Positions 1 through 41,546 of a stretch of 64,000 nt of DNA are shown in pieces. Both the position numbers and the translations under genes were made by a program. The DNA is from a virus. The stretch lies in IMG/VR virus record IMGVR_UViG_3300042922_000250, positions 1 to 64,000 of that record; one strand, written 5' to 3'. Under the pieces are notes generated by a model. That model made no database searches. It was not told the DNA's origin and saw only the letters and a program-made list of their open reading frames with translations. How positions within the stretch are numbered: the first letter of the stretch is position 1; each line of letters starts with the position of its first letter.

Positions 1-176
1 TGAAGCACGGAACCAACTACGATACTTACGGCATGCAATGCAAACTAAGAGGACTTGCTGAAAGATATAAAGATGACGAAGGGCATTACCTTGTAAGCGT
101 CCTTACCACTAACGACCTGAACAGTGCAACCATAAAAGACGTATCAGAACTGGTATTTCAACTCGGAACCCATTAA
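1..176 (+). CDS. 3' end of hypothetical protein identical to 41137..41541
   Basis: Encodes ...KHGTNYDTYG...VFQLGTH*. Confidence 0.85.
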   Translation, partial: KHGTNYDTYGMQCKLRGLAERYKDDEGHYLVSVLTTNDLNSATIKDVSELVFQLGTH

Positions 177-181
177 TCGCA
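1..181 (+). repeat. Direct repeat copy 1 (matches 41366..41546), may extend left of the window
   Basis: Base-by-base match with one synonymous difference at position 128 (GCA vs GCC). Confidence 0.97.
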
Positions 182-233
182 GAGTGAGCCGGGAAACCGG
201 CCTCTGTCCAAGGCGATGAAAGGATGATGCAAA
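177..233 (+). repeat. Array spacer: GCAGAGTGA + hairpin + GAAAGGATGA RBS (twister-like remnant)
   Basis: cgcagagtga-gccgg-gaaa-ccggc; lacks TAATGC and the L4 loop. Confidence 0.5.
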
Positions 234-425
234 ATGTCAACTCTACAGTATAAAAATAAAACAGTATGTTGTTGCTGTGCAAACTGCGGCTGGAAAGGGA
301 TGGTTGAAGACCAGGAAGTGTTTTGCCGAGAGTCGAGGGAATGGAACAATAACTACCACGAATGCCCCCAATATTGGTTCAGTTGGAGTCATTTCGAGAA
401 TTTAAAACCAGATAACGCAGAGTGA
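234..425 (+). CDS. Small Cys-rich (zinc-ribbon-like) hypothetical protein
   Basis: RBS gaaagga; CANC...ECP. Confidence 0.7.
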   Translation: MSTLQYKNKTVCCCCANCGWKGMVEDQEVFCRESREWNNNYHECPQYWFSWSHFENLKPDNAE

Positions 426-476
426 CGGGGCTAGTCCCCTGTAATGCCCCCGGATACCAGGGAAAGGATGATTTGT

Positions 477-746
477 TTGCAAATAGTAATTGGCTGGGTA
501 GAAATGGAACCCGAATTAATTCGCAGACGTAAAGACGACATCGGGGAGCAACATATTTTTTGCGAATCGCCCGTTGCAAGGTCGGCAATGTGGAAAAACA
601 ACGGCACAGAATCCGATACAGAAAAAGCCTTGCAATATGCGGGGGCGAACGGCTATCAAGTTTATGTGTATGCCAATGTCAAAAATCCATTAGAGCAGGC
701 TCGTAAGGATGCAGCGCGACACTGGAATCAAACTAACGCCCTGTAG
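477..746 (+). CDS. Hypothetical array protein
   Basis: TTG start 8 nt after aaagga, within ORF 444..746. Confidence 0.7.
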   Translation: MQIVIGWVEMEPELIRRRKDDIGEQHIFCESPVARSAMWKNNGTESDTEKALQYAGANGYQVYVYANVKNPLEQARKDAARHWNQTNAL

Positions 747-804
747 CGGGAGCCGAAGGCTGCGGTCACAAGCACTGATAGCCAGTAATGAAAGGATGAT
801 GCAA

Positions 805-1041
805 ATGGCCACCGGCGAAGCGTTTATGCGTATCCATCATGCGCGAAGGAACGCAGAAAAAAGAGCTTCCGCAAAGAAGATTGACAAAGAATCGTATCGC
901 AATCTGCGTTGCGAACTAGTGGCACTGCAGACAGCGGACAGTGCGTTATGGGCAGACCTTACACTATCAGATGACTTTGTTGAGCAAAATAGCAAGGAGT
1001 ACAATAGCCGCATACAAGAGTTGATCAACGCGATTTACTAA
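805..1041 (+). CDS. Hypothetical array protein
   Basis: RBS gaaaggatga then ATG (MATGEAF...). Confidence 0.7.
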   Translation: MATGEAFMRIHHARRNAEKRASAKKIDKESYRNLRCELVALQTADSALWADLTLSDDFVEQNSKEYNSRIQELINAIY

Positions 1042-1043
1042 CC

Positions 1044-1103
1044 GACAGAGCACCGGGGAGCAATCCCCGGTAATGCGGCAAGCGGGGGCGCAAGGCTGCC
1101 GCG
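1044..1103 (+). ncRNA. Degenerate twister-P5-like element
   Basis: cagagca-ccgggg-agcaat-ccccgg-TAATGCGGC-aagcgggggcgcaaggc; L4 and T1 imperfect. Confidence 0.4.
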
Positions 1104-1123
1104 TAAGAAAGGAGGGATTTAAT

Positions 1124-1249
1124 GTGAAATATGTATGTTGTATCTGCGGCAAAGAACTGAACGAACTTGACCTGATTCCTAATGATGAAGGCAGAGACAT
1201 TTGCCCTTACTGCGGTAAAGATGATTTAGAGCAGATTGCTCTGTCCTAA
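1124..1249 (+). CDS. 41-aa zinc-ribbon protein (not in ORF track)
   Basis: RBS aaggagg, GTG start; MKYVCCICGK...DICPYCGK. Confidence 0.75.
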   Translation: MKYVCCICGKELNELDLIPNDEGRDICPYCGKDDLEQIALS

Positions 1250-1277
1250 CTAGGGTCATTTAGAAAGGATTGATAAT

Positions 1278-2281: not shown

Positions 2282-2691
2282 TAGCTAGACTCCAATGTAG
2301 ACAATAGCGCAGCTTTGCAAATCGCCTCAGGGACCGTTTGGCATTGGGCGGACGATCCATGCCAATTATGCTTTGGGTTGTTATGATAAGGACACGGACC
2401 ATAATTACAAACAAACTTTACAAGCCACTCACCATGATTAAACCGATACAACTCAGCACTTTCATAATGCAATTCCCGCATTTTTTCAACAACTTCCCAT
2501 GCATAACTTATATCTGTGCTGTAATATTTAAGTGGATTTTGCGTCTCTTTATCGTACAAAAAATCACCATTAAGACCAAAATCATCATCAGTAACTATAT
2601 CGCCTTCAATCTTTACGTGAAATACTTCTTCGGCGACAATAATATCCAGTTCTCTCCCCGGCTTCATCGCCAATATCTCTTTTTTTGTCAT
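2281..2691 (-). CDS. Phage ABA-sandwich-like protein
   Basis: GRELD..VAE, YSTDISYAWEVVEK, PEAICKAAL motifs. Confidence 0.7.
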   Translation of the reverse strand: MTKKEILAMKPGRELDIIVAEEVFHVKIEGDIVTDDDFGLNGDFLYDKETQNPLKYYSTDISYAWEVVEKMRELHYESAELYRFNHGEWLVKFVCNYGPCPYHNNPKHNWHGSSAQCQTVPEAICKAALLSTLESS

Positions 2692-2694
2692 CAG

Positions 2695-3003
2695 TCACGC
2701 CTCCTTTTTCGGGAAATGCTTGTCAATCAAGTCTCGCAACTTCTCGCATTGATATTGATTAAGCGGTATTTTCTGATTGCCTGTTTCTATAATAATATTA
2801 ACACCGTCATCTTCTTTCCTAACACGCACAAACGTTGTTATGTTTGTTCTTCCGAATAAAAAAGCATACTCACGATGACCTTCTGATAATCCAAGCGTCA
2901 CAATCTCAATTAGTTTCTTTTTTTCTTCTTGATCTTCTAACGCCTTAATCCTAGTTGTTAAATCACACGAATCACATTTATCTTTTTTGCTCCAAAACAT
3001 CAA
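2695..3003 (-). CDS. Hypothetical protein
   Basis: RBS and operon packing. Confidence 0.6.
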   Translation of the reverse strand: MMFWSKKDKCDSCDLTTRIKALEDQEEKKKLIEIVTLGLSEGHREYAFLFGRTNITTFVRVRKEDDGVNIIIETGNQKIPLNQYQCEKLRDLIDKHFPKKEA

Positions 3004-3044
3004 TTTCCCTCCCTCTTAAAATCCTACGCCAATTCAAATGTCTT

Positions 3045-3536
3045 TTAACCTGCGTCATTCTGGTGCGAATTTTGGCTATTGTGAAGTTGTTTATCATGCC
3101 AAGTTACCGCAACCGCATATGCACTCCATATGTCAGCCTTAAATCCATAAAACCAACCAGGTGCCTTTTTAGTTCCAACTGTGCCGAATCGATCAAGCAA
3201 TGCCTGTCTAATATTGCTGTCTTTTGCTTTAGTTACTCCGCATATATTTATTTTTACGTCTTTTCGATAAATTAGAATAGGTTGCATCCCCTTGGACTGT
3301 AGTGCTTCATAAAACCTTCCAATCCATACACAAGTTTCAAATACTTCCTTTCCTACAGCCATTCCGTACGATGCAATCATTTCTATGGCAACATGATCGC
3401 ATAATCTAAACGCATCATGATTTATAAATGCTAATAAATCATGATTATTTAGTTTTCCAAAGCAATCAGGCTTTAGATTATCATCAGTAACAACATGAGC
3501 AGATTCTACATTTCCTGGATCTATAGCTAATATCAA
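3045..3536 (-). CDS. RuvC-like Holliday junction resolvase
   Basis: MILAIDPG, VAIE, ADIWSAYAVA acidic motifs. Confidence 0.75.
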   Translation of the reverse strand: MILAIDPGNVESAHVVTDDNLKPDCFGKLNNHDLLAFINHDAFRLCDHVAIEMIASYGMAVGKEVFETCVWIGRFYEALQSKGMQPILIYRKDVKINICGVTKAKDSNIRQALLDRFGTVGTKKAPGWFYGFKADIWSAYAVAVTWHDKQLHNSQNSHQNDAG

Positions 3537-3698
3537 TTCCCAACCTCCCTATACAGTCTGCACCTAAACTTTTTAGGCCTTGTGTAGCTGAATTGTTTGG
3601 CGCAGACTATTGTTTTGTCGTTGATTAACGCTGTTAGGTGATAGCATGATTGGCAGAGGTATTTATTCATGCCCACGGCTGCAGGATTGTTATGGCTT

Positions 3699-4484
3699 TC
3701 ATGGCTGCCCCTCCGCTACCTGTTTGATCGAATCTTTCCATGCGACTTTCGGACGGCCTTTGAGCGCGGCATATAATGCCCGAATCTCGCTGTCACGTTG
3801 CTGATCCTTGATCGCTAGCGCAGCCAGCGCGACTTGCTGACTATCCTTTAAAACGCGCTGGTCAATTTTATTCATTTTACCTAACCACACTTTGTCGGTA
3901 ACATAAGACTGAACAGCCTCAAACGTCCTGATAGCATCCTCCTTGCCGGAAAGCATCGGTTCCATACTGACTGATGTCGAAAAATCAAGTCCATATGCCA
4001 CCATCAAGCACGCAATACGCTCCTTTGGCAAAGGCGATCCCGGTTCCCAAAACCTTGACAAGTCGTCGTCGAGCGTGCCAATCGTAAATCTAAATAAGAT
4101 TTGGTCTTTGAAATGTTCCAGTGCAAATAGCAACGGCTTAATGCAGTCCATTCTTGGCTTTGACACGACCAAAACATTGTTACCGTTCCGCAGGGTTTTG
4201 GTCAGCACATCAATTGATTTTTCAAGATATGTTGGCGTAATGTCGTGGATTGTCGGGAACATGATCACACCATTTCTCTTTGCCATGCCGTTAGGGAAAG
4301 CGTTTTCTCTGACTGTTTCACGTTCCCATTCGCTTCTGTCGGCAATCCGCTTGTATCGCAGAGCGTGAACGGTTGCATAGCAGTACCGGCATTTATTCCG
4401 GCATCCTAGTCCTATGTTCATTGAGTGTTCAGACCATTCGCGGGTTCCTGTTCCTGTTCTTGCGTCGCTAAAGTTGGCTTTCAT
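3699..4484 (-). CDS. Radical SAM protein
   Basis: GCRNKCRYCYA (CxxxCxxC); SMEPML. Confidence 0.75.
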   Translation of the reverse strand: MKANFSDARTGTGTREWSEHSMNIGLGCRNKCRYCYATVHALRYKRIADRSEWERETVRENAFPNGMAKRNGVIMFPTIHDITPTYLEKSIDVLTKTLRNGNNVLVVSKPRMDCIKPLLFALEHFKDQILFRFTIGTLDDDLSRFWEPGSPLPKERIACLMVAYGLDFSTSVSMEPMLSGKEDAIRTFEAVQSYVTDKVWLGKMNKIDQRVLKDSQQVALAALAIKDQQRDSEIRALYAALKGRPKVAWKDSIKQVAEGQP

Positions 4485-4897
4485 GGCTGCTCACCTGCCT
4501 TAGCAGTGGTGTCGCCGCTCCCCAGGGCTTGGCGGGCAATGCTACGCATCCAATGGGCGCATTGTTTTGTTAGTTGCGGCTTACCCGGCCCTACCACTGT
4601 ATACATTCCTTTTTCATCCGGGCCACTAACATCAGGATAGAAATAATGACCCTCTCTTTTTGCTATCCGTTCCAGTGCCCCCGTCAGTTCCGCGATTCTG
4701 GCGTTAAGTTCCGCAATCTTAGCATCAACCGCCTCCAGTCTGTCAATGTGGTCGAGCAGGGCTAGCAGAGTAGTGGGGTTTATAACCAGGTTAAGCGATA
4801 CGCAACCATTGCAAACGCAAGTGTCGTATGTCTTTTTTGTTTTTTCATGTTTTTTAACATACCGTGCCGCCTCCCGCAGGGCTTTTGTGTCAATCAT
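4481..4897 (-). CDS. Ead/Ea22-like protein
   Basis: IDTKALREAA...NPTTLLALLD, coiled coil. Confidence 0.5.
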   Translation of the reverse strand: MIDTKALREAARYVKKHEKTKKTYDTCVCNGCVSLNLVINPTTLLALLDHIDRLEAVDAKIAELNARIAELTGALERIAKREGHYFYPDVSGPDEKGMYTVVGPGKPQLTKQCAHWMRSIARQALGSGDTTAKAGEQP

Positions 4898-5252
4898 TTC
4901 GATTCCTCCAATTCATTGCGAAGCGGCAGAAGTCCATCCACGGGCAACCCGTTCCGCAACGATCTTCGTCATATTCCCACTCATATTCTTCAAGTTCAAG
5001 ACAGACAGGAGTTTCGTTTGACTGCGCGCCTTTCAGAGCCGCCTCCCCTAACTCAGCTTTTGCCGACAGGGATTCGATGAGGTCGGCAATGTCTGCGCAA
5101 TCACTTTCTGTTATCTCAGGAATTTCGCATCGTTTATCACAAAATACTTGATTATCGTCAGAACATTGACAAATCGGCTTTGCGCTTGCTCTAAGTATTT
5201 TTATCGCCGTATCCTTGTCAATCACGCTGCTCACTCCTTTGCGCACGCCCAA
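4890..5252 (-). CDS. Cys-rich hypothetical protein
   Basis: Operon packing. Confidence 0.55.
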   Translation of the reverse strand: MGVRKGVSSVIDKDTAIKILRASAKPICQCSDDNQVFCDKRCEIPEITESDCADIADLIESLSAKAELGEAALKGAQSNETPVCLELEEYEWEYDEDRCGTGCPWMDFCRFAMNWRNRND

Positions 5253-5975
5253 TTTGTAAAAGCTATACAGTTTTCCTCAGCCTTGCAGTACTGCCTTTCC
5301 TGCTCGTCCGGACATGTAGCACACGGACAATCAGGTATCCGTTCATATCCTGGATTAATAACCACTTTAGTCATGACCTCTCCCCTTTCTACTGCCTGAG
5401 AACAGGCTCATCGTCTTCGTTTGTGGTAGTTCTCTGTATTTGTATTTTCGGAGTAAGTCCTAATGCCAACAAAGGCCATGCAGATTGTGTCACGTATATA
5501 GCAATTGAGATTGCGCTATAAAATCCAATAAAGACTAATGCCATACAAAGATTATTCACGGCTTTTCCTCCCTTGGCGGCTCCGGCAGCTTAACAGTTAT
5601 TAAATCGCGACATTTACTGCAAACATAATCAAGCCATTTTCCGGAATAACCACCAGAAAAATACGCCTTACCTTGACACTTCGGACACTTTATTTGGAAT
5701 GGCATTTTCTTTTTCATTCTTCAACCTCGGAAGCGCATTTGCCGCACCTGTAATCTTTATCCGTGCTATCCCAAAACCACTTATGACGCTTGCATTCAAC
5801 CATTTGCTTGATGGTTGGATTCATGGCTGTTCCTCCCTCTCAACAACGGCCAATCTCGCCCTCATAAACAACAGGCACGTTGTTTGATATGGTTCATCGA
5901 TGTAGACTTTAAGGATGTGAGAATTCTTGCACTCACAACTCCTTAAGTATCCGAATATGCGATATTGGCTTTAGA

Positions 5976-6191
5976 CTACCTATGAGGAATTGAAACCTCC
6001 ACAAAACATTCACTATCCCACCCGCACTTTCTACAACGATAACTCCATAATGTTGGAGAGCCATGTTCTGGACGCTTATCGCGATAAATTATCTTCCCGG
6101 TTTTTACATTTCGGCCAACAACGCAATCATAAGTCGTTAACTGCGTGATTCTATCGCTGCCACATTCTGGGCACTTTGTTACTTTGTTCAT
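5976..6191 (-). CDS. Zinc-ribbon protein
   Basis: CPEC...CRKC. Confidence 0.65.
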   Translation of the reverse strand: MNKVTKCPECGSDRITQLTTYDCVVGRNVKTGKIIYRDKRPEHGSPTLWSYRCRKCGWDSECFVEVSIPHR

Positions 6192-6511
6192 GTTTCCCCC
6201 ATCGCCTCCGCCAAAGCGTCGATAGCGTCCAATATTTCAACAAGTACTTCCAGTGCCTCATTTTGATGGGTATCATCGGTTGTTGCTCCCCATTTTTGTT
6301 TTGCACTTATCACCGCATCTGCCGCCTGCTCAAGCCGGGATAGGCGGTTCAACTCATCGGCAATTCGTTCCCTGTCGCCCGGCATAATATCGCATAGCAT
6401 TCGGAAAGACCTTACCGACCTGTCCTTCGGCGAGCATGCCACAAACGATTCCCTGAGGATTTTTTCGAGATATTCTACTTCACTCATCATCTTCCACCTT
6501 CCTGACTCCAT
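6188..6511 (-). CDS. Hypothetical protein
   Basis: Operon packing. Confidence 0.55.
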   Translation of the reverse strand: MESGRWKMMSEVEYLEKILRESFVACSPKDRSVRSFRMLCDIMPGDRERIADELNRLSRLEQAADAVISAKQKWGATTDDTHQNEALEVLVEILDAIDALAEAMGET

Positions 6512-6718
6512 CCCAATTAAACAACCAAAACACTCTTGCTAAAAAATTCGTCCTCCAATTCATCAACCATCGAATTAGCCTTTCGGATTGCTCACCAATC
6601 ACAACAAACAGGATTGGGCAAATCCATATTGGCGACAAAATCAGATCGATAATCAAAATTAAAACCTTCCATTTTTTACTGTCGACTGCTTGGCTGTATA
6701 TGGCAATTCTCTTTTTAC

Positions 6719-7063
6719 TCACAACCGCATACCTCCGATCAAATCCGGGTTGTCGTGGATGTTGCCGCTCTCCCTCTCTAAAACGATAATGGACAATATC
6801 ACCCATCCGTCAAGCAACCCGTACATTGGTCCTTTAAGTACATGAGTGACAACCGATTCACATTTTCTTCCCGTGTACTTTAACTGCTTTCCTGATTTCA
6901 TTTCTTGCACCGAGAACTCAGTCTCTTTAAGAATCAAAATGTCGCCAGACTGATAATCCCTATCGTTGAACCTGATTTCATAGGTTTTATCTCCGTTATA
7001 AACCGCCTCGAATACTTCTGGGTCGGTTTTTAGTTCGTGAACGTTTGGTGTGATTCTACTCAT
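6719..7063 (-). CDS. DUF3850/ASCH-PUA domain protein
   Basis: HELKTDPEVF...GDKTYEIRFNDRDYQSGDILILKE. Confidence 0.85.
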   Translation of the reverse strand: MSRITPNVHELKTDPEVFEAVYNGDKTYEIRFNDRDYQSGDILILKETEFSVQEMKSGKQLKYTGRKCESVVTHVLKGPMYGLLDGWVILSIIVLERESGNIHDNPDLIGGMRL

Positions 7064-7569
7064 CAGCCGCTCTCCTTTCCGCTGAGGGCTTCTCTTGCTA
7101 AATTAATCCAAAAACTATTGTCTTTGCTATAATCCTTTGCTGCATCTGACGATAAAAAAACTAAACGCTTCTTCATTGCTTGTAATGCCTTCACCAGCAC
7201 CGCTATCCTCGCGTCCCTGACTTCAAGTATTTCCACCAACCAAACAGCAGGGATATGTACCGTAACGACATTACAAAGCGATTTTAGCTGTTCAGTTCCC
7301 TGATCCGGGTCATAAGCATAATACGGACAATAATCTTCGACTGATTTTGAGTTGGCGGCATCCAATGCCATGTTAAGAAGTTGGTTTTTATGCTCAATCT
7401 CTTTGTAGGCATCGGCTAGGCTATCCAGCTTGAATTTTACTAGGGACAGTTCCGCTTCACAGGCGGCGAGTTGATTTAATATTCTAATGTTGCCACACAT
7501 CAACCTATTGACCTCTTGCCTCAATTCCCCGCACTCTTCCCTCAGCTTGCAAATCTCAGTTTCGGTCAC
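7063..7569 (-). CDS. Coiled-coil hypothetical protein
   Basis: Heptad-rich; overlapping start/stop. Confidence 0.6.
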   Translation of the reverse strand: MTETEICKLREECGELRQEVNRLMCGNIRILNQLAACEAELSLVKFKLDSLADAYKEIEHKNQLLNMALDAANSKSVEDYCPYYAYDPDQGTEQLKSLCNVVTVHIPAVWLVEILEVRDARIAVLVKALQAMKKRLVFLSSDAAKDYSKDNSFWINLAREALSGKESG

Positions 7570-7793
7570 TTCAATCCCTCCAAATACCGCTTCAACGACC
7601 CCAAGCTATAACTTGGCACCATCGCATAACCCTTGAATCGATGCTCTCTAACTACGGCTGTTGACAACCTGATTAATTCATTTCGCTGTGCTATGATTTT
7701 CTGTTGTCCTTTAGGCATTGCCCACAACATGGCGACGAAGCAAGCGCAGAAACCAATCATAAGAGTTGTTGGTAACCAGTACCAGGAAATCAT
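7566..7793 (-). CDS. Small membrane protein
   Basis: N-terminal hydrophobic helix. Confidence 0.6.
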   Translation of the reverse strand: MISWYWLPTTLMIGFCACFVAMLWAMPKGQQKIIAQRNELIRLSTAVVREHRFKGYAMVPSYSLGSLKRYLEGLK

Positions 7794-32757: not shown

Positions 32758-33759
32758 TTATACCAATCTTGGATCTATTTGTTTTAACATTTCTTTTGGA
32801 ATCTGATCGCTTTTACCATCGCGGATAAGCTGTTCAACTTGCGCCCATGACATTGCAGATGTTTTTGCGCCGCTAAGATTCTGCGCCATTGGCAACCCTG
32901 CCGCTTTATCTAGCGGAGTTGTTGCAATTTGTGCTGCTTGCTCTGGCAAAGAAATAGCACCCTGTGCAGGTGCTTGCGTGATACCTTTCATTTTGTCTTG
33001 ACATTTCTTAGCGAACTCGCGGAGAACAACAAAGTCGTCTTTTGTGCCGAACCCGTTATCAACTCGCTCATAGGCTTCGTCAATCTTCCTGGCTTCTTTT
33101 CTAGGAAGTTCGTCAAGCTCTGCCTCTGCGAATTGTAGCAACACCGGAAAATCAGGTATTGCTTTTAACTCTTGCGCGAAGCTTAAGTTTTCATTCAAAA
33201 CAACCTGTCGCTGTTGATAATCGGCTTCTAGGCGATATTCTTCTTTAGATACGCCCTTAACATATTGCAAATACTTGGCCGGGTCTGTATATTGCAATGT
33301 TTCGATATCGTCAGTTATCTTAAGAGCTTTTCTGATTTTTTCATCAGCCATTTTAGCAATTAGCTCGCTAACATCGATTTGTTGAGGCTGTTGATTTGTC
33401 TGAGCAGCGGCGGGTGCTGGCTGTTGAACAGGCGCTGACTGTTGCTGTTGCGAAGCCTTTACTGCGGCTAATTCAGCAGCAAGAAGCTTGTTCTTGTCGT
33501 TAATCTCCTTGAACCGGTCATACGCTATTACGGTAGGTTTTAACTTTTCGGCTGTATCGCCGCCGACTTGCGAAGGTTCTTCCTGTTCGGCTGAATGTTC
33601 GGCTGAATTATCTTGTTCCTCTGCCAACTCGGCAGGAGTTTCAGTAGTTTTTTCGGTTTCTTTTGGTTGTTCGGTTGTGATTCCTTGCAGTTCTTCCGCG
33701 GTAAAATGGTCTTTTAACGTGTCCACCGGCACGAGATTTATTTCTTCCATTATTAGCAC
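32758..33759 (-). CDS. Scaffolding protein
   Basis: Acidic coiled coil, YDRFKEIN; precedes capsid. Confidence 0.75.
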   Translation of the reverse strand: MLIMEEINLVPVDTLKDHFTAEELQGITTEQPKETEKTTETPAELAEEQDNSAEHSAEQEEPSQVGGDTAEKLKPTVIAYDRFKEINDKNKLLAAELAAVKASQQQQSAPVQQPAPAAAQTNQQPQQIDVSELIAKMADEKIRKALKITDDIETLQYTDPAKYLQYVKGVSKEEYRLEADYQQRQVVLNENLSFAQELKAIPDFPVLLQFAEAELDELPRKEARKIDEAYERVDNGFGTKDDFVVLREFAKKCQDKMKGITQAPAQGAISLPEQAAQIATTPLDKAAGLPMAQNLSGAKTSAMSWAQVEQLIRDGKSDQIPKEMLKQIDPRLV

Positions 33760-33892
33760 TCCTTTTTACGTCTCGTGGACGAAATTTAATCTGTGCTTTT
33801 AACGACTGTTGCTGTCGATTGGCATAAAAAATACACCTATCGCTAGGTGCTATGCGTTTATTGAGAGTGTTTTACCACTCCGATCACACTCC

Positions 33893-34090
33893 TTAGATTC
33901 TTTTAACTAGCGTAGCCTGCATTCCTCTTGAACTTTCTTTTCCTGGTTCAAACTCAACCAATTCACCAACATCAAGCGTTATGTCTGTGCTCTGAATCGC
34001 CGAGAAATGGCAGAAGTAATTAGTTCCATCATCGCCTGTTATTGTTCCATAGCCTTTGTTGTCGTCCCACTCTTTGCATGTTCCTTGCAT
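33893..34090 (-). CDS. Cold-shock domain protein
   Basis: KGYGTI (RNP1) and YFCHFSAI (RNP2). Confidence 0.9.
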   Translation of the reverse strand: MQGTCKEWDDNKGYGTITGDDGTNYFCHFSAIQSTDITLDVGELVEFEPGKESSRGMQATLVKRI

Positions 34091-34101
34091 GAATTACTCC
34101 T

Positions 34102-36141
34102 TTACATAGAATTACCGCCCTGTACAGGCGGTTGCTTCGGCGGGTTATTCATTTGCTGTTGCACTATCAAGCTTGCAGGATCAACCTGTATCCCTGCCTC
34201 TGCCAACACTGCTATTTTGCCTTCAATCGGCAAATCCTTGAAAGCGATTGATAACGAAGTCTTAGGAGGCGGCATCTGGTCAGCATCTTCTTGCTGCTTC
34301 TCCATCATCCTCCTCAACTCTGTTTTGTTATTGATCGGCATATACTCAAGCAACATCTGCGGAGGAATTTGAATTCCTGCTTTTTGCGCATCAATCAACT
34401 GGTATAACGTAGATTGCATAAGGGTTGGAGTCGATTGGCTAGGAGCAACAACAATATCAAACTCAAACTTTGACAGGTCATATAGCACACGCTGTACTAA
34501 TTGCCCTTGTTCATCAATCACTGGCTTCCCTGTGTTCGGGTCGATTTGCGGTTGACGTGTTACCGCTTGATCTTGTCCGTTAGCCAACTCAACGAATTTA
34601 TTCTCGCCATCCTTGCCAATAATTCGCATTACCATTTGTTCTGTAAAGTATTGCGGTATTAGCCCAGGTCTTCCCTTATCACCCCAAAGCAAGTCAAGAA
34701 TTAGGCGTTCTGAATAGTTTGCTTCATCAGCTAAGTCGCTAACCTGCATAAACGAAGCCTTTTGCCTGCGGTCAATCGCAACGCCGGACATATCACCCGG
34801 AACATTAATACTGCCCATCGTTTCAGGATTGATACCACTTATCATGTAGAAGTCTTCGCCGCTAACCTTTTCCATTTCGACATTAGCAGTCGATATCCCA
34901 TCCGGCATGATTCGTTCAACCTTAGTTACGCTAGGCGGAACATTCAATTTTGCTCCCGGAGTAGTTCCAAACGATTTTAACTGCGCATCAAACTCAGGAG
35001 TGCTTGTTCCGTATATAAGCCATATGCCATTAGCCTGCGTATTGACGATATGCATCCGCTGACTTCTGTGCTTATTAAGCTCTCGTTGAATCGGCTTCAA
35101 ATCTCTGATCAGTCCAGCAGGTTCAAGCGAAGCGTCATTCTCGTCCTTTTCTGCCGTGTAATAGGCGAACTCTTGGACAAGAGGGAATCGCTTATGCTTG
35201 TATGGCGAGTCGCTTTCTTCTAACAGCACATCATCTGTGAACACTAGATAGCGGTAATTACAGGATGGAATACGATGCTTTTTGATGCCAGGTATGCGAA
35301 GTGAAGCCATTGACTTCAATTCTTCTGTTTCTTCTAGTATCTCAGGGGTTCCGTCCATCTGATAAACGTTTCTAAATGACCGCTCTTTATACCAATACTG
35401 CGCCACCCTCAGTTTTTTTAATTCCTTACTGTACCAAATTGGTTCGTTGGCGATTGACTCAACTTCTTTTTCTGCCTTGTCGTATTGGTGTTTTAGTCCG
35501 TTTATTTCGCTTGCCTTATCCTCATAAATTAAGGATAATTCGTCAGGATCTTCCCAACTATACACACCACAAAACTCTGCATCTGACAAATCTTCTTTGA
35601 TGCTCTCAGGATCAACAAATACTTCAAACGGTGAACGGCGTTCAATCTTTATCATTCCGTCCATTTTGTCATAATCAAAGTCATAGAACACCCAATAATA
35701 GCCTTTGCCACATATTAGCCTGTCGCGGCTTACCTTCTTTTTGTGGCGATTAAACATGCACTTATCATATACATATTTATTAACGCCTTTTGCAATAGCG
35801 CATATTTCATCATCTTCGCCGCTTCTTGGCAGGAAGTTAGCTTCTGACATATTCTGTCCAAAATAACCTGATACCTGATTGATCAATGGTCTGCAACGGT
35901 TAATGGTGATTGCCGGTCTGCCCTGTTTCATTAGTGCCTGTTCGTCTTTAGCGTCCCATTGCTTACCCTGCACAAAACGAAAGTCTTCCCTTGCTTCCTT
36001 TCGCCAATCAACAGACGCTTCAAGAGATAGGCTAACATTCTGTCTTGCTTTCTGTACTTTGCCTATGTCTGTTGGTTCTGATCTTATTGAATCGTCCATG
36101 TATTCACCTCCTTGAAGTCCAATGTTTGCATCTATTGTCAA
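34102..36141 (-). CDS. Portal protein, P22-like
   Basis: GKQW, RPAITIN, SGVAI. Confidence 0.88.
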   Translation of the reverse strand: MTIDANIGLQGGEYMDDSIRSEPTDIGKVQKARQNVSLSLEASVDWRKEAREDFRFVQGKQWDAKDEQALMKQGRPAITINRCRPLINQVSGYFGQNMSEANFLPRSGEDDEICAIAKGVNKYVYDKCMFNRHKKKVSRDRLICGKGYYWVFYDFDYDKMDGMIKIERRSPFEVFVDPESIKEDLSDAEFCGVYSWEDPDELSLIYEDKASEINGLKHQYDKAEKEVESIANEPIWYSKELKKLRVAQYWYKERSFRNVYQMDGTPEILEETEELKSMASLRIPGIKKHRIPSCNYRYLVFTDDVLLEESDSPYKHKRFPLVQEFAYYTAEKDENDASLEPAGLIRDLKPIQRELNKHRSQRMHIVNTQANGIWLIYGTSTPEFDAQLKSFGTTPGAKLNVPPSVTKVERIMPDGISTANVEMEKVSGEDFYMISGINPETMGSINVPGDMSGVAIDRRQKASFMQVSDLADEANYSERLILDLLWGDKGRPGLIPQYFTEQMVMRIIGKDGENKFVELANGQDQAVTRQPQIDPNTGKPVIDEQGQLVQRVLYDLSKFEFDIVVAPSQSTPTLMQSTLYQLIDAQKAGIQIPPQMLLEYMPINNKTELRRMMEKQQEDADQMPPPKTSLSIAFKDLPIEGKIAVLAEAGIQVDPASLIVQQQMNNPPKQPPVQGGNSM

Positions 36142-36249
36142 ATGGATGCTTTTCTATTTCTTTGTCGTCATATGCGCAAATGTTGCGCATTGCGTTCCAT
36201 TCGTCGCTATGGCTTAGAAGCCATTCGCAATTAGCACATTTATGCCACA

Positions 36250-36483
36250 TTACTGCACCATCCCAGTGTTATAAAACATGTAGTAAATCTCCGATAATTG
36301 ATCGCTTGTTAGCGAATCAACAAAGAATTTAATCTCCAACGGCGTTGTTCCTGGATTGCGAGCTTTTAGCAAATCCATCTCTGACATTAGGACTCGGTAG
36401 GCGAAGTCGCGCAAGGCTTTGTCTGAGACGTGAGGGCTAGCGTACATTATCGAGAAACCTCTTCGCTTTTTCGATTGTGTCAA
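36250..36483 (-). CDS. Hypothetical protein
   Basis: Operon packing. Confidence 0.45.
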   Translation of the reverse strand: MTQSKKRRGFSIMYASPHVSDKALRDFAYRVLMSEMDLLKARNPGTTPLEIKFFVDSLTSDQLSEIYYMFYNTGMVQ

Positions 36484-36703
36484 ACTCAGTTACATATAAA
36501 CCGCGCTCCGCGACTACAACTCTACTGCCTGAATCTTCAACGATCATGTATCCCCGGTATTCTTGAAAAGGAACTGCTGTTCCAGGACTTGAACTAAGTT
36601 CTTTCATTAATGATTTGTTTTCAAGCTCCGCTGCCTGCTTCTTAGCTCTTGCCTCTGCTCTCGCCTGTGCTAATTTCGCTTTTTGCTCGTCAGTCATTGC
36701 CAT
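36437..36703 (-). CDS. Hypothetical protein
   Basis: Operon packing. Confidence 0.65.
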   Translation of the reverse strand: MAMTDEQKAKLAQARAEARAKKQAAELENKSLMKELSSSPGTAVPFQEYRGYMIVEDSGSRVVVAERGLYVTEFDTIEKAKRFLDNVR

Positions 36704-36901
36704 TTATTTAGCACCTTCCTTGTAGTCAATCCAACTCTTTAACGCTTTAATGCACGATGAAGTTCTTTCTGTTTTTTCTATATCTATCTCGCTATTCATT
36801 GTTACGCCGTGCCGAATTACTCCGTCTTTAATGGCAAATATGTTGTTATTATCATCTAAACTAAACGAATACCCCTTATAATTTTCTATCCTGCCATCCA
36901 T
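36704..36901 (-). CDS. Hypothetical protein
   Basis: Operon packing. Confidence 0.6.
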   Translation of the reverse strand: MDGRIENYKGYSFSLDDNNNIFAIKDGVIRHGVTMNSEIDIEKTERTSSCIKALKSWIDYKEGAK

Positions 36902-38193
36902 GATGTTGCCTCCTCTTCCTCTTGACGGTCATAGCCGCCATAGTCTATTTTTGGTTTTTCTTCCGCAATGTGTTCACGCCAATAGACCATTTCCTGCTCA
37001 TTGCCGTATCGAATAGCATCAATCAAGTGATTGTTTCTATCAACAGGCTTGGCAAGCTGTTCACCATGTTTGTTTTCTTCCCACTTGTAAGAGGAAAATT
37101 CATTCTTTGTGTTTTGACAACGCACATCAATAATGATTTCCTGCTGTTGCAGCCATTGTATACCGTAATTAACGCTATCTTTACCCTTAATTGCACCAAC
37201 CGTTGATATGCCGCGCTGCGCCAATTCTATAATTGATTTAGGCTCTGAGCTATCGCAAGTAATTAATTCCTTGCCGATCATCGGCTTTAGTGATTTTGCT
37301 AAATCATCATTAGTCAATCCGCGCTCGTATAACTCATCTAAGATATATAAACGTTTTCGCTTTCTATCGTAATGAGTACGAGCAGCAGCAGAAGGATCAG
37401 AAGCAAATCCGAAGTCAAGACCGTTATTAAACGTAGCAAATGTTTTGCGTTCCTCTGTTAAATCCCTAACAATCCAGTTAGTAAAGATAACGCCGCCAAG
37501 GAATCCCCAATTGCCAAGCAAATAAACATCTTTATAATACTTGTCTTTGGTGTTCTCTAGCCTCTTTATATCGTCAGTTGTCAAGAATGTGTTGTCTTTG
37601 TATGTTGTCTTTAAGATGAATATTTCATCATCTTTGTACTTCTTTGCTCCATCTGTCCAGATGGGCCTAAAGTATGTTGTGTATATCCAATGTGTTTGGT
37701 TGATCGGATTAAATGACAGGACGATTCTCTTATTAACCTTAGACATACCGCGCAGACGTTTATCTAACTGCTGGACATCTTCGTAATCAGCCTCAGTAGC
37801 TTCCTCATACCATATGTCAGTAATAACGCCCTTTGCCGGAGTTATAGACTTAACACGTTCTGAATCATCCATACCAATAAACAATATCTGATACCCATTC
37901 TGACAAGTTATAATCATATCTGTTTGATTAAACTTAAACAGATGAGTACATTTGAATTTACTGATAGACTTACTTATTTCGTTATAAACAGAACGCTTTG
38001 CTGTGTTCGCTACCTTCCGAACAACCAGATAATTATGACCACCTTTCAGTATATCAAGAACAGTTCTATCAGCAAGAAATACTGATTTCCCAGAAGATGA
38101 ACCGCCATAATATACCTCCAACGGCGCAACCCATCCAAGATACGGACGATAAACAGGATTAAAACACTTCTTGTCTATGTTCAAATTAATCAT
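36886..38193 (-). CDS. terL: Terminase large subunit, PBSX family
   Basis: GGSSSGKS, WYEEA, GLDFG, NHLIDAIRY. Confidence 0.95.
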   Translation of the reverse strand: MINLNIDKKCFNPVYRPYLGWVAPLEVYYGGSSSGKSVFLADRTVLDILKGGHNYLVVRKVANTAKRSVYNEISKSISKFKCTHLFKFNQTDMIITCQNGYQILFIGMDDSERVKSITPAKGVITDIWYEEATEADYEDVQQLDKRLRGMSKVNKRIVLSFNPINQTHWIYTTYFRPIWTDGAKKYKDDEIFILKTTYKDNTFLTTDDIKRLENTKDKYYKDVYLLGNWGFLGGVIFTNWIVRDLTEERKTFATFNNGLDFGFASDPSAAARTHYDRKRKRLYILDELYERGLTNDDLAKSLKPMIGKELITCDSSEPKSIIELAQRGISTVGAIKGKDSVNYGIQWLQQQEIIIDVRCQNTKNEFSSYKWEENKHGEQLAKPVDRNNHLIDAIRYGNEQEMVYWREHIAEEKPKIDYGGYDRQEEEEATSWMAG

Positions 38194-38631
38194 TGAATCA
38201 GTCCTTTTTAGGCAATAAAAAAAGCCCTTATTATAGGCTTGAAAAGTTTCGAACGTATAAAAAAAATTAGGATTTTGAAATACCGATAATTGATTGAAAA
38301 GGAGTGAAAAACTTGTAATTAGGGGTGCAATACAATTTGATAGCTGGTAGAAGTAGATATATATAGCACAGGCGCATTCGCCACAGCCCCCATACCCCCT
38401 CGAATCTCACACGCTAACGCCCGCCTGCGCTCATGTCTGCGTGTGAGCCTGTGCGCTCATGCACCAATGATCTGCACGCATGTATGCATTTGTTTGCTGG
38501 CTAGGATTTGCACCTAGCATAACGCAGCACGAATTGCCTTGGCGCACCACTGCATCATCTAACAGCCAAGATTAATGTCTACCTATTCCATCACCACAAA
38601 CAGGCATAAGAAAAGGACGCAACGAATAGTT

Positions 38632-38659
38632 ACGTCCGATAATATTGAGTATGTAAACA
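38632..38659 (+). other. dif-like XerC/D site
   Basis: ACGTCCGATAA-TATTGA-GTATGTAAACA, 11-6-11 layout. Confidence 0.6.
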
Positions 38660-38765
38660 ATAGAATACAGTGTTTATGCGGCTTTCCGGATTCGCAGTTT
38701 ACAATAACACAATTTACCATGTTAAAACAGCTAAAATCCATTGAGCGTGGACATCTTTAGTTTAT

Positions 38766-39203
38766 TTAATCATCAGATATAGTTACATTGATAGTCAAGT
38801 CAGAACCATCTTTGCCGGTGATTTCTGTTTCGTTTTTATCCTTCCAACCGTAATTGTTCTTTAGGTTGAACAAAACACCGTTAGGATTCTTGGCTGTCAT
38901 GCTTAATTCCTCTGCATAATTATGGCAAATACGCTTCGCGCGTGTAATCGCGTCGAAGAACTCAGCCCTACCTTGATAATTTAATAACCCTTCTCTATCC
39001 ATATCTAATGCCAATCCTAGCCCCGTAATAGTATATGGCCTAATCTGCACTCTCTCTACACCTATCACATCGCCGTTCTTATCAATAATAGGCTTATCAG
39101 TAAAGCATGATTCGAAATATCCATCTATTAATTTTTGCATCTCGTCAACAGTCTTATATTTTAACGGTCTTCCACCTGCATGCTTCTGCTTTTCTTCGCT
39201 CAT
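38766..39203 (-). CDS. terS: Terminase small subunit
   Basis: GGRPLKY, PYTITGL, FNLKNNYGWKDK. Confidence 0.88.
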   Translation of the reverse strand: MSEEKQKHAGGRPLKYKTVDEMQKLIDGYFESCFTDKPIIDKNGDVIGVERVQIRPYTITGLGLALDMDREGLLNYQGRAEFFDAITRAKRICHNYAEELSMTAKNPNGVLFNLKNNYGWKDKNETEITGKDGSDLTINVTISDD

Positions 39204-39761
39204 TCAATTCACGTCCTTTCTGCCATTATATATCTTCCTATACAAATCAATTTTAGTGGCATATTCCTCTTTCGTTTCGCCTTCCGTCATCTTTCTGCAT
39301 ACCGATTGCTTTCCCTGTCCACTAAAAATATAAGGAACAGGTTCATTAAAATCAATCTCGCTATTAGTTATATCATTATTACTAGCATTCGATTTCCCGT
39401 TATCGGAAAACCGCATAACGGTGATATTTACTGGCTTCGTAGGTTGTTCGTAAACATTATATAGATATCCAGCAAACTTTTTCTTGCTGTCTCTCTGCTT
39501 TGTTCTGGTGATATAACCTAGCTGTATTAATTCCTTAATCCCCGATCTAACGCTACACAGTTTATCAGCACTATTATTTGCTATGTCTAATTCGTAAACA
39601 TTCCAATTATCCGGCTTACTTAATAGATATAGCATAATTCCTTTAGCCTTCCAGCTCAACCTGTTATCATTGACTAACTGCTTATCAATCTGTACAAACG
39701 GTAATTCCCTTTTATGAATATGAAACACACTCACAATTTTACCACCTCCAAAACACAACAA
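39204..39761 (-). CDS. Winged-helix protein of replication-initiator N-terminal type
   Basis: LSWKAKGIMLYLLSKPDNW...ELIQLGYI. Confidence 0.7.
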   Translation of the reverse strand: MLCFGGGKIVSVFHIHKRELPFVQIDKQLVNDNRLSWKAKGIMLYLLSKPDNWNVYELDIANNSADKLCSVRSGIKELIQLGYITRTKQRDSKKKFAGYLYNVYEQPTKPVNITVMRFSDNGKSNASNNDITNSEIDFNEPVPYIFSGQGKQSVCRKMTEGETKEEYATKIDLYRKIYNGRKDVN

Positions 39762-39793
39762 AAAATAATTTGAAAAAATATTAAAAAATCATA

Positions 39794-39822
39794 TTGACAA
39801 CGCTATTTTGATTTGTTATGAT
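39794..39822 (+). promoter_or_regulatory. Sigma-A promoter with TGATT/AATCA repeats
   Basis: TTGACA-17-TATGAT. Confidence 0.75.
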
Positions 39823-39856
39823 TCAATCAAGATAAGCGACAGGGAGGACGAACACA

Positions 39857-40282
39857 ATGGCAAAACCGCAAACACTCAAACATAATTTAGGACACTACTG
39901 CAACAACCAGGATGATTTAATCGATGAATTAGTGGATTTGCTTGGCGAAGACGGAAATTTTGCAATTGGTATTCGCGGCATGTATGAAACGGAAAAGAAC
40001 AAACTTCGTCAATCATATGTATGGATAGATGGCAATAAAACACGGCAAAAACTCCCGGGAACTAGCTGTTTAGGTATTGTGTCCAATTGGGGAGACGCAA
40101 ACAATCAAGACCTAATTGACGGGTTAAAAAACATCGGTAAATCTGCAATGTATGGCGACGGACGCTTTGCAATTATAAAAGGACAATATGATGTCAATGT
40201 GCAGGATGATTGGGCAAACGACCCTGGAGAATATGTCTTATTAAACGCTGAAATAGTAGCATATACAAATCATGACAACTAA
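39857..40282 (+). CDS. Acidic hypothetical protein, possible ADP-ribosyltransferase fold
   Basis: RBS ggagg; GIRG / GTSC / PGEYVL. Confidence 0.6.
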   Translation: MAKPQTLKHNLGHYCNNQDDLIDELVDLLGEDGNFAIGIRGMYETEKNKLRQSYVWIDGNKTRQKLPGTSCLGIVSNWGDANNQDLIDGLKNIGKSAMYGDGRFAIIKGQYDVNVQDDWANDPGEYVLLNAEIVAYTNHDN

Positions 40283-40424
40283 AACACACGGCGGCTATCG
40301 ACCAAACTCAGGCCGTAAAAAACAACTCCCAGAAGGTGCAAAAATCAAGTCAATCACAGTTACAGAAAATGAATTTGTTAAGCTAAAAGAATATCTGCAA
40401 CAACTTAGAGAGACCGCTAAATAA
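40272..40424 (+). CDS. 50-aa DNA-binding protein (GGxRPxxGR + RHH-like), not in ORF track
   Basis: MTTKTHGGYRPNSGRKK...; overlaps previous stop; terminator follows. Confidence 0.7.
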   Translation: MTTKTHGGYRPNSGRKKQLPEGAKIKSITVTENEFVKLKEYLQQLRETAK

Positions 40425-40759
40425 GCGGTCTTTTCTTTTTTTACCGCCTGGAATAAAGTCTGCAACCAAGCGGCAATATATCGACTGATAATACAGTCAT
40501 TAGTGGTTCTCGCAGACATTACACCGCATAAAACAAAAAGCCACATGCGCAATGCATATGGCTTAATTTTATTAATTCCCCGCCGTGGTGCGGATCAATG
40601 TCTGAACCGGCATATAATCCGTGGCGGGGCTACAATCAGCGGCAGAACTAAATATGTTGTCCTGGTTGCAACTCCGCTGATTGCCTTAAATGTCCTGTCC
40701 TGGTCAGCATTGTTAAGAGGATTGACAGGCTCTGTTTTTTTACTCTCATCATAATAATA

Positions 40760-41014
40760 TCATCTTTGCAATGGCTTGTCATTCGGCGAATCTGACAGGC
40801 TATTTTTCTTTTTCCAAACAATATCAAATCCAGTTATATCCGCAATATCTTCTGCCTCTGATAGTCGCAATGTTTTATTGCGTATTTTATTGTTTAGATT
40901 TTGAACAGAATAAGGCCTTTTGTATTTATCGCTCAATAACTGCGCTACTTCGGTTAACGACATACCTGCTGCCGTTATAATCGTCTTGACATTCATCCAT
41001 ACCACCTCAATCAT
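40760..41014 (-). CDS. HTH regulator divergent from the right array
   Basis: MSLTEVAQLL...SVQNLNNKIRNKTLRLSE. Confidence 0.8.
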   Translation of the reverse strand: MIEVVWMNVKTIITAAGMSLTEVAQLLSDKYKRPYSVQNLNNKIRNKTLRLSEAEDIADITGFDIVWKKKNSLSDSPNDKPLQR

Positions 41015-41072
41015 ATTTTACATCATATGGTTTATAATTGCAAAATAAATATAAATTAATTGATTTAAGTAG

Positions 41073-41101
41073 TTGACATCTTAAATTATATAGTTTAAGA
41101 T
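41073..41101 (+). promoter_or_regulatory. Array promoter with palindromic operator
   Basis: TTGACA-17-TAAGAT; ATCTTAAA-N8-TTTAAGAT. Confidence 0.75.
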
Positions 41102-41136
41102 AAAGACAGGATAATCAATCAGGGAGGTAATCAGGG

Positions 41137-41541
41137 ATGGCGAAGACGGCAATGAGAAAGCTGGAAGAGTCCAGTTGGTTAGCGCAAATTCTACTAGATA
41201 AAATGGATGTCGAACTCGATAAAAACGGTGGTTCACCTCGCTGGCATTGCCTACACACGCTATACATTATCGTAAAAGAAGCTGACGACATGGAAAACAA
41301 CCAAATATACTACGATACTTATAACGGCAAAAGATCTATCACGATATGCAAGATACCATCTCTAATGAAGCACGGAACCAACTACGATACTTACGGCATG
41401 CAATGCAAACTAAGAGGACTTGCTGAAAGATATAAAGATGACGAAGGGCATTACCTTGTAAGCGTCCTTACCACTAACGACCTGAACAGTGCCACCATAA
41501 AAGACGTATCAGAACTGGTATTTCAACTCGGAACCCATTAA
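41137..41541 (+). CDS. Hypothetical protein, first gene of the right array
   Basis: RBS gggagg; 3' part duplicated at 1..176. Confidence 0.8.
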   Translation: MAKTAMRKLEESSWLAQILLDKMDVELDKNGGSPRWHCLHTLYIIVKEADDMENNQIYYDTYNGKRSITICKIPSLMKHGTNYDTYGMQCKLRGLAERYKDDEGHYLVSVLTTNDLNSATIKDVSELVFQLGTH

Positions 41542-41546
41542 TCGCA
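41366..41546 (+). repeat. Direct repeat copy 2 (matches 1..181)
   Basis: One mismatch. Confidence 0.97.

Follow-up and report, generated by a model that had tools for sequence, protein, structure and literature searches.

The window analysed here is a stretch of 64,000 nt, positions 1 to 64,000 of IMG/VR record IMGVR_UViG_3300042922_000250, a linear contig of 73,828 bp whose first base is also window base 1. It holds two phage units, A and B, which meet at a gene of an accessory cargo array, and the following features:

1–181, plus strand: left repeat copy, comprising the last 59 codons, the stop codon and 5 further bases of the shared array gene, cut by the contig start
182–1915, plus strand: A-type array cargo of small genes, ending at a bidirectional terminator-like hairpin (1788–1810)
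182–41365 plus one repeat copy: unit A, a temperate podophage-like genome of 41,365 bp per turn, GC 0.413
3689–4485, minus strand: S1, a 797-nt block in both A and B, with an exact repeat at 70798–71594 (outside the window)
6730–6856, plus strand: V2, the internal exact copy of the contig's final 127 bases (73702–73828, outside the window), matched over 127 bases without a difference when read inward from that end
16768–17937, plus strand: unit A tyrosine integrase (phrog_1, 5.8e-73), with phage genes on either side
21320–39203, minus strand: unit A virion module, with TerS (38766–39203), TerL (36886–38193), portal (34102–36141), major head protein (31766–32740), SU10-type adaptor (30648–31253), and tail and ejection genes (21320–30165)
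41137–41541, plus strand: gene R, the intact shared array gene (134 aa; no Pfam or PHROG family), containing the right repeat copy, 41366–41546
41547–42364, plus strand: B-type cargo of a homologous array, ending at a terminator-like hairpin (42339–42358)
41547–64000, running on to contig base 73828, minus strand: unit B, part of a myophage, comprising a virion module, lysis genes and a cargo array, GC 0.481
47099–49113, minus strand: unit B fibres
49790–53075, minus strand: unit B baseplate
53956–55575, minus strand: unit B tape measure
58900–59970, minus strand: unit B sheath
62093–63049, minus strand: unit B major head protein

Unit A carries the gene content of an entire temperate phage. 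It encodes an integrase, an anti-repressor, recombination proteins of Gam-like and Sak4-like type, replication proteins of DnaD-like and DnaC-like type and a RusA-like resolvase, together with TerS, TerL, portal, major head protein, adaptor, tail proteins and an endolysin. Functions for integration, regulation, replication/recombination, packaging, head, tail and lysis are all represented and are colinear once the unit is circularised; a CI-type repressor was not identified in unit A. The podophage-like assignment derives from the SU10-type adaptor match together with missing matches to sheath, tube and tape-measure genes, none of which was detected in the virion module. As judged from the internal position of the integrase, att is predicted not to have recombined and to be in the unintegrated (attP) configuration. 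The best IMG/VR match to this integrase reaches 51%, and no close relative was found there. Megablast of A (182–25000) and B (41547–64000) against 50,697 phage records returned no match, and neither unit therefore has an annotated close relative among them.

Unit B contains virion, lysis and array modules only. Past the window (64000–73828) it continues with a protease, a Mu-F-like protein, portal, TerL, TerS, a late regulator and nin-like genes. Integrase, immunity and replication modules are absent from 41547–73828, and all three are present in a closed 46.3-kb B-type myophage, G001, which has its own integrase, immunity and replication block. Unit B, at 32.3 kb, is a fragment that covers about 70% of a myophage unrelated to A. 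At the A/B junction, GC rises from 0.41 to 0.48.

The two units meet in gene R, which is preceded by a promoter-like site at 41073–41101. Relatives of gene R with 72–75% amino acid identity occur in five otherwise unrelated IMG/VR phages, and none was found among species-representative bacterial genomes. Exact-pattern scans of IMG/VR, run with the beginning of gene R and with its junctions to B and to A, matched nothing besides the record itself, which was excluded. The A and B arrays have four short spacers in common, in conserved order. The B-type cargo contains a predicted Twister-P5 ribozyme at 41741–41794 and is colinear with the array at 27.3–27.9 kb of G001. Both gene-to-cargo junctions coincide with natural cassette boundaries; these junctions, together with the synonymous mismatch described below, appear as expected of two functional alleles in two genomes.

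The repeat copies at 1–181 and 41366–41546 are identical at 180 of 181 positions, far beyond chance in 64 kb, and chance repetition was rejected. The sole mismatch, at offset 128, is synonymous because GCA and GCC both encode Ala. Bases 1–127 thus form an exact 127-mer, V1, that is copied at 41366–41492 and diverges at base 128; the repeat is longer than this because the next 53 bases past the branch SNP are, as it happens, identical as well. At the other contig end, a mismatch immediately precedes the 127-base run that is shared with V2. Exact repeats of at least 127 nt number three in the whole contig, V1, S1 and V2. Both contig ends are therefore exact 127-mers of internal sequence, with divergence just beyond. 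The JGI workflow runs metaSPAdes at k values of 33, 55, 77, 99 and 127, the last being the largest (bioRxiv 10.1101/2020.09.30.320929). In agreement with this maximum, G001 has a DTR of exactly 127 nt, which maps to contig 6771–6897. A value of k = 127 for the present contig is deduced from its own sequence and from this sibling contig, and the exact 127-mer ends are best read as the trace that assembly on a de Bruijn graph with k = 127 leaves behind.

Several observations of the first-pass annotation stand. The 181-nt repeat with one mismatch is as it described, gene content bears out its enclosed 41.4-kb genome with every module, colinear when circularised at the repeat, and the phage genes on both sides of the internal integrase agree with its unrecombined integrase/att region. 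Its placement of this phage between repeats inside another phage's accessory array does not survive. Because window base 1 is contig base 1, nothing lies to the left of the left repeat copy; the annotation had proposed looking there for a continuation of the myophage or for host DNA, and neither is present, the contig having no sequence on that side. Since myophage DNA lies on the right only, the left copy has no recipient DNA outside it and is an overlap at the contig end, not a repeat that flanks an insertion.

The remaining two repeats fall in nin-region genes. S1 spans a 261-aa gene (3699–4484; phrog_13321, unknown function) that is present in A and B. V2 sits in two overlapping genes, encoding a 108-aa protein of no family (6480–6806) and a 114-aa DUF3850/ASCH protein (6719–7063), both of which are also in G001. 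G001 is 100% identical to contig 6771–7083 (313 nt), and beyond 7083 it departs from unit A into early genes of its own.

Relatives of the two units were found apart. Unit B is colinear with G001 and with prophages in two MAGs, neither of which has an A portal anywhere in its genome. No part of the G001 integrase-to-replication block is present in the 73.8-kb contig. For unit A, a gene-for-gene relative of matching size, 39.3 kb (G004; CheckV 100%), is without B genes except for one anti-repressor gene, and G004 genes match contig 9706–11495. The lone early/lysogeny module correlates in tetranucleotide composition with the A virion genes and with G004 (r 0.85–0.91), as against 0.59–0.72 with B. 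Across other assemblies, A and B relatives occur separately and never joined. The hosts appear to be Negativicutes/Bacillota.

Collectively, these data suggest that the 73.8-kb contig is quite probably a k = 127 de Bruijn graph walk through two co-occurring mosaic phages, not one molecule. The first-pass annotation had offered an assembler join of two phages through the repeat as its alternative, and the 127-mer ends and the one-sided recipient favour it. That the join of 41365/41366 to B is non-physical is what we infer, with good confidence, from the repeat, the 127-mer ends, a complete A, an incomplete B and relatives that occur separately.

If the contig arose in this way, two different temperate phages in one sample would share a few near-identical modules, namely the first gene of the cargo array and two nin-region blocks. 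At k = 127 the shared stretches would collapse to common nodes, V1, S1 and V2. The walk would then involve: departure of the assembler from V1 along the A branch; one circuit of phage A (41,365 bp) and re-entry into V1; passage, on this second visit, into the other branch (C, not A, at base 128) and through 32 kb of phage B; and a halt at V2, where the sole onward path would be sequence already used. The direct repeat that seems to bracket a phage would be the ordinary overlap left where a complete circular genome closes, after which the walk ran on into a second phage. The integrase-to-replication block missing from B, about 14–18 kb long if G001 is a guide, would then be on other contigs.

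Two points count against such a walk. First, a path-extension assembler normally requires read pairs to choose the B branch after sequence unique to A. Should the sequence in common ahead of the branch amount to only about 400 nt (41087–41492), read-pair support for an A-to-B link could be genuine. Second, the missing third of B, its early block, was found on no other contig in exact-pattern scans of IMG/VR and metagenome contigs. In the metagenome contigs, a 40-mer inside R and a 46-mer just past V2 gave no match, and the parent contig of G001 was absent there too, which suggests that this collection does not include the dataset; in IMG/VR, the 46-mer matched G001 only. In favour of the walk, a molecule of at least 67 kb would not be expected to fit the capsids of 41- and 46-kb genomes.

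A variant of the graph walk, which we consider unlikely, holds that A and B share an almost identical early/immunity/integration module (about 6857–19000) that was collapsed to one copy, making the contig a compact walk over the genomes of two phages of unlike morphology. The sizes would agree, since 32.2 kb of B plus a shared module of about 12.2 kb gives about 45 kb, close to the 46.3 kb of G001, and the nin-replication-immunity-integrase order is the same in A and G001. Such sharing would also account for the lack of an unused exit at either contig end and of a separate B early contig. Against it, G001 diverges from A right past 7083, the composition of the module and its homologues in G004 tie it to the A lineage, and the A integrase has no close relative in any myophage context.

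Somewhat less probable still is a physical co-integrate, in which an A circle entered a resident B prophage through a Campbell-type single crossover in the array gene that both carry. This was the event favoured by the first-pass annotation, for which no positive support was found, the recipient being one-sided and the ends exact 127-mers. The predicted structure is B-left, R, A, R and B-right, and the assembler would, on this doubtful account, have recovered the right junction and been unable to extend leftward. The order R-A-R-B is as such an event would give; the shared gene and promoter are near-identical over at least 181 nt and possibly over about 460 nt, which offers homology for a crossover; the A and B arrays are homologous loci; and A encodes Sak4-like and Gam-like recombination functions. 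The assembler's choice of the A-to-B link may also reflect read-pair support. However, in the absence of B sequence left of A, half of the predicted structure is unobserved, and the identical topology arises without recombination. Both repeat copies exist, yet the left one, truncated where the contig begins, lies on a k-mer node and is equally a circle-closure overlap. Both contig ends are k-mer overlaps with internal sequence. Read pairs that resolved the right junction should have carried the assembly across the B-left junction too, where their support would be equal. With the missing block of B, the molecule would reach about 88 kb, unpackageable by either capsid. In addition, G001, like unit A, appears in unintegrated form, and relatives of A and B are always apart.

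Highly improbable is a real element with two forms, circular or integrated, in which a backbone (6857–41365) carries, between the array gene and the nin block, either 6.6 kb of A or 32 kb of late region captured from a myophage, the latter gained through a double crossover involving R and the nin genes; on this remote reading, the contig circles twice and takes each alternative once. The contig's own graph does close to one circle with two successive bubbles (V1, a1 or b1, S1, a2 or b2, V2, backbone), all joins would then have read support, and no separate B early region was found in the pattern scans of IMG/VR and metagenome contigs. The long form, however, would be about 67 kb with two complete sets of packaging, head, tail and lysis genes, in excess of the genomes of A-type (39–41 kb) and B-type (46 kb) relatives; past 7083, G001 parts from the nin segment in common and continues with early genes of its own; and backbone composition fits A, not B. 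An integrase-mediated tandem or nested prophage is rejected, since the integrase (16768–17937) is internal and some 23 kb separate it from the array gene in which A and B are joined.

A nested-phage contig that is most likely an assembly product makes the finding itself an ordinary one. Under the preferred reading of a graph walk through two phages, its practical consequence is that a 73.8-kb IMG/VR record rated 100% complete would represent one complete phage and about 70% of another, a quality flag that calls for splitting the record at 41,365/41,366 before taxonomy, host prediction, genome-size or gene-content statistics. Setting the length of the exact matches at the two contig ends against the assembler k values provides a read-free check that is usable for other calls of a phage inside a phage or of two virion modules. 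The presence of near-identical modules in unlike phages is real biology here, and already known. A short-tailed and a contractile-tailed temperate phage, with hosts that are probably Negativicutes-like, have nin-region genes that are identical and a cargo array of which each carries its own allelic version, which points to recent exchange within one community. Should the join be physical, for which the chances are poor, a complete 41.4-kb podophage-like genome would lie within a myophage prophage, in its ribozyme-punctuated cargo array, and would have got in by homologous recombination at the first array gene that the two share, not by way of its integrase. In that event, A could exit again by recombination between the repeats of at least 181 nt, and cargo arrays would be docking sites at which unrelated phages piggy-back on each other.

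Artefacts of related form have been described. Terminal-repeat lengths of viral contigs from metagenomes equal assembler k values (CheckV; PMC8116208), metaSPAdes contigs break at branch points with end sequences of maximal k and chimeric joins occur (COBRA; bioRxiv 10.1101/2023.05.30.542503), and mosaic phages give unresolved graph bubbles (Phables; PMC10104058). As in those cases, the end copies here are 127 nt, a k-mer closes the circle of a complete genome, mosaic modules that co-occurring phages have in common act as graph nodes, and the contig far exceeds the genome size of either relative. Unlike the usual artefact, a same-genome concatemer or a plain DTR, the walk here would close one genome and then enter a different phage. 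The likeness to Campbell-type co-integration lies in the order of repeat, element, repeat and recipient and in the shared array gene, which could plausibly serve as the substrate for homologous recombination. In contrast to such co-integrates and to tandem or nested prophages, recipient DNA is on one side only and host or att junctions are lacking; the join lies away from the integrase att site and is known from contig sequence, not from reads.

Mosaic exchange of modules is familiar from temperate phages, lambdoid and other, whose tails differ in morphology, P22 and lambda being one example. The subject is also treated in the introduction to Phables (PMC10104058). As in lambdoid mosaics, a short-tailed and a contractile-tailed phage here share a moron array gene as well as near-identical nin-region genes (797 nt at 100%; with G001, 313 nt at 100%), the remainder being unrelated. 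Relative to those mosaics the exchange is nothing new in kind, set in hosts that appear to be Negativicutes/Bacillota and not enterobacteria.

The 73,828-bp IMG/VR contig is probably an assembly walk over two separate phages: a podophage-like temperate genome (unit A, 182-41365 plus one copy of the cargo-array gene R) and a myophage fragment (unit B, 41547-73828). The first-pass annotation had inferred that the former lies inside the latter as a nested co-integrate, with an assembler join as the alternative; as a biological feature, the nested reading is not supported.

Unit A has 41,365 bp per turn and a GC content of 0.413. Its features are:

3045-3536, RusA-like resolvase
8229-8915, DnaC-like, replication
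8818-9552, DnaD-like, replication
10351-10998, Sak4-like, recombination
10995-11495, Gam-like, recombination
13378-14112, anti-repressor, regulation
16768-17937, integrase, integration
19626-20267, endolysin, lysis
21320-30165, tail and ejection genes
30648-31253, SU10-type adaptor
31766-32740, major head protein
34102-36141, portal
36886-38193, TerL, packaging
38766-39203, TerS, packaging

The description "podophage-like" is reasonable but presumptive, reflecting that no sheath, tube or tape-measure genes were detected in unit A. The integrase lies in the interior of the unit, flanked by phage genes on either side; att is therefore unrecombined, as had been proposed. This integrase has no close relative in IMG/VR (best 51%), and megablast against a 50,697-record phage collection returned no nucleotide relatives of unit A (182-25000) or unit B (41547-64000). 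In the tail or ejection region of unit A, the protein encoded at 25600-26727 (minus strand) has a Hint_2 domain at its C terminus, which Pfam scores at 29.4 bits versus a cut-off of 28.4.

Unit B has a GC content of 0.481 and holds no integrase, immunity or replication genes within 41547-73828. Its features are:

41547 to ~42364, plus strand, cargo array
45521-46207, lysis enzyme, within the minus-strand operon after the array
47099-49113, fibres
49790-53075, baseplate
53956-55575, tape measure
58900-59970, sheath
62093-63049, major head protein
past the window end: protease, Mu-F-like protein, portal, TerL, TerS, late regulator and nin-like genes

Two adjacent tail-fibre genes (47099-48112 and 48232-49113) begin with the same ~30 codons, made up by an exact direct repeat of 90 nt (48009-48098 and 49025-49114, minus strand). 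The two genes share an identical N-terminal attachment part and have unlike distal parts, which suggests alternative or paired receptor-binding fibres.

The repeat linking 1-181 to 41366-41546 with one mismatch was confirmed. The mismatch lies at offset 128 and exchanges two alanine codons (GCA versus GCC). The right copy forms the 3' end of a gene that is intact:

41137-41541, plus strand, R (134 aa)

The left copy is likewise the 3' end of R, its 5' part being absent where the sequence begins. The two copies diverge a few bases past the R stop codon; the small gene that then follows differs between them, and each of these genes has a ribosome-binding site of its own. R has no match in representative bacterial genomes. 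Relatives at 72-75% occur in five IMG/VR contigs, three of which place the gene within ~400-800 nt of a contig end; this suggests that assemblies often break at such arrays, where a conserved first gene is followed by variable cargo. Upstream of R, within the plus-strand moron cluster, Rfam gives a match to the abiF RNA motif that stays below threshold (40693-40729, minus strand; 29.6 bits versus a gathering threshold of 37, E 0.014).

The window covers bases 1-64000 of the 73,828-bp record, which is linear. Window base 1 is contig base 1, and the left repeat copy is the contig's first 181 bases. The "bracketing" of one phage by another thus lacks its left half, and no sequence exists in the contig that could continue myophage or host to the left. 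The first 127 bases are identical to 41366-41492, base 128 being the first difference, and the last 127 bases (73702-73828) are identical to 6730-6856, the preceding base differing. Compared with itself, the whole contig shows mosaic homology between its right end (70780-73828) and 3671-6856. It contains just three exact repeats of at least 127 nt, the two end 127-mers and one longer block:

3689-4485 and 70798-71594, 797-nt exact repeat (S1), 261-aa gene of unknown function (phrog_13321)

The JGI metagenome workflow runs metaSPAdes at k 33, 55, 77, 99 and 127, the largest being 127 (bioRxiv 10.1101/2020.09.30.320929). Terminal-repeat lengths of metagenome viral contigs cluster at assembler k values (PMC8116208), and metaSPAdes contigs break at multi-path points, leaving max-k end sequences (bioRxiv 10.1101/2023.05.30.542503). 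In a sibling record, the closed B-type relative IMGVR_UViG_3300042923_000541 (G001), the direct terminal repeat is exactly 127 nt long. Together, the end 127-mers, the largest k and the G001 repeat mark both contig ends as probable branch nodes of a k=127 graph: the left end is the last shared 127-mer ahead of the A/C branch (V1), and the right end is the first shared 127-mer after the paths merge (V2).

In graph terms, the contig would read V1-a1-S1-a2-V2-backbone-V1-b1-S1-b2-V2. The walk would exit V1 by the A allele, circle unit A once and, back at V1, follow the B allele through 32 kb of unit B, ending at V2, where the sole continuation had already been used. The bracketing repeat would then be the overlap at which a complete circular genome closes; it measures 181 rather than 127 nt owing to a further 53 identical bases past the SNP. 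The walk passes the 797-nt exact repeat twice. As short-insert pairs cannot phase across 797 nt, the assignment of 4486-6729 to A and of 71595-73701 to B is insecure.

Mosaicism across temperate phages with different tails is textbook knowledge. Here, near-identical short modules are common to three phages of one community (A, B and G001), and such stretches collapse into shared nodes of de Bruijn graphs. Units A and B have R in common, and S1 is 100% identical between them. The overlapping gene pair at 6480-7063, whose second member is DUF3850/ASCH, is 98.8-100% identical between unit A and G001, with a 313-nt stretch of the DUF3850/ASCH gene at 100%; the 127-nt closure of G001 maps inside the pair, at 6771-6897 of the contig. 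The identities at S1 and in the 6472-7083 region, which holds the DUF3850/ASCH gene, look like recent module exchange between unlike temperate phages of one community. The arrays of A and B are homologous loci with the same first gene and different cargo. They have four spacers of 13-21 nt in common, identically ordered and set among unrelated small genes (23 shared 11-mers versus 0.6 expected). One is a Twister-P5 ribozyme, matched in the B array at 41741-41794 (plus strand; Rfam 44.1 bits versus gathering 37.6), with a colinear sub-threshold match in the A array at 1044-1091 (plus strand; 23.6 bits, E 0.047). A further gene common to both phage types is the unit B anti-repressor (56189-56980, minus strand), which sits as a moron with the sheath/tube genes on one side and the tape-measure gene on the other; its identity is 59% to gene 2477-3235 of the A-type relative G004 but only 36% to G001.

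Relatives of units A and B exist separately and were never seen joined; pattern scans of IMG/VR and metagenome contigs found the exact junction sequences on no other contig. G001 has 46,337 bp and closes on its 127-nt repeat; from portal to fibres, its genes match those of unit B one by one, at 60-100% amino-acid and 82-90% nucleotide identity. Its remainder comprises a cargo array (27.3-27.9 kb), Ku-like, integrase, ImmA-like regulator, SbcC-like/recombinase and DnaD-like replication genes, beyond which it returns into the nin segment. None of its integrase-to-replication block is present in the 73.8-kb contig; unit B therefore represents ~70% of a B-type genome. As the unit B array is colinear with that of G001, the R-bearing array belongs natively to B-type phages. 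G004 (39,311 bp, CheckV 100%) matches unit A virion genes at 45-80% amino-acid identity and, in circular synteny, the genes at 9706-11495 and the RusA-like gene. It lacks the opposite-strand array between RusA and TerS, making the unit A array a moron-type insert.

B-type prophages occur on 248-305 kb host contigs of two MAGs (Bacillota bacterium JAEZJM010000025 and Sporomusaceae bacterium JAHDPL010000014), which point to Negativicutes-like hosts. They are colinear with unit B from TerL or portal to fibres, with sheath at 82-87%, varying with the comparison, and a weakly similar (26%) integrase-like gene ~22-25 kb past TerL. The unit A portal has no match anywhere in either MAG genome. In both MAGs, the fibre end of the prophage lies within ~3-7 kb of the contig end.

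The composition fits two genomes: GC rises stepwise at the A/B join, from 0.41 to 0.48, and by tetranucleotides the lone early/lysogeny module groups with unit A virion genes and G004 (r 0.85-0.91, versus 0.59-0.72 with B). Unit A and G001 are both in unintegrated configuration, and a 67-88 kb molecule would presumably be too large for capsids with 41- and 46-kb genomes. A version of the two-phage walk in which B shares this module of A, and would be G001-like in size (~45 kb), is rather unlikely. Still less likely is a physical Campbell-type co-integrate, which would yield the same graph topology. In its favor, a path-extension assembler usually needs read-pair support for taking the B branch. 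G001 similarity to the contig begins at 41087, so the sequence collapsed ahead of the branch might span just ~400 nt (41087-41492) and some real pair support is conceivable. A 67-kb element in two forms is very improbable.

The practical worth of the observation is a flag on the IMG/VR record and a read-free test: the exact-match length at contig ends against the assembler's k. Chimeric joins do happen in metaSPAdes assemblies (bioRxiv 10.1101/2023.05.30.542503), and mosaic phages yield "bubble" graph components (PMC10104058). The closest known counterpart is the documented behavior of de Bruijn assemblers on circular or mosaic phage genomes (PMC8116208; bioRxiv 10.1101/2023.05.30.542503; PMC10104058).
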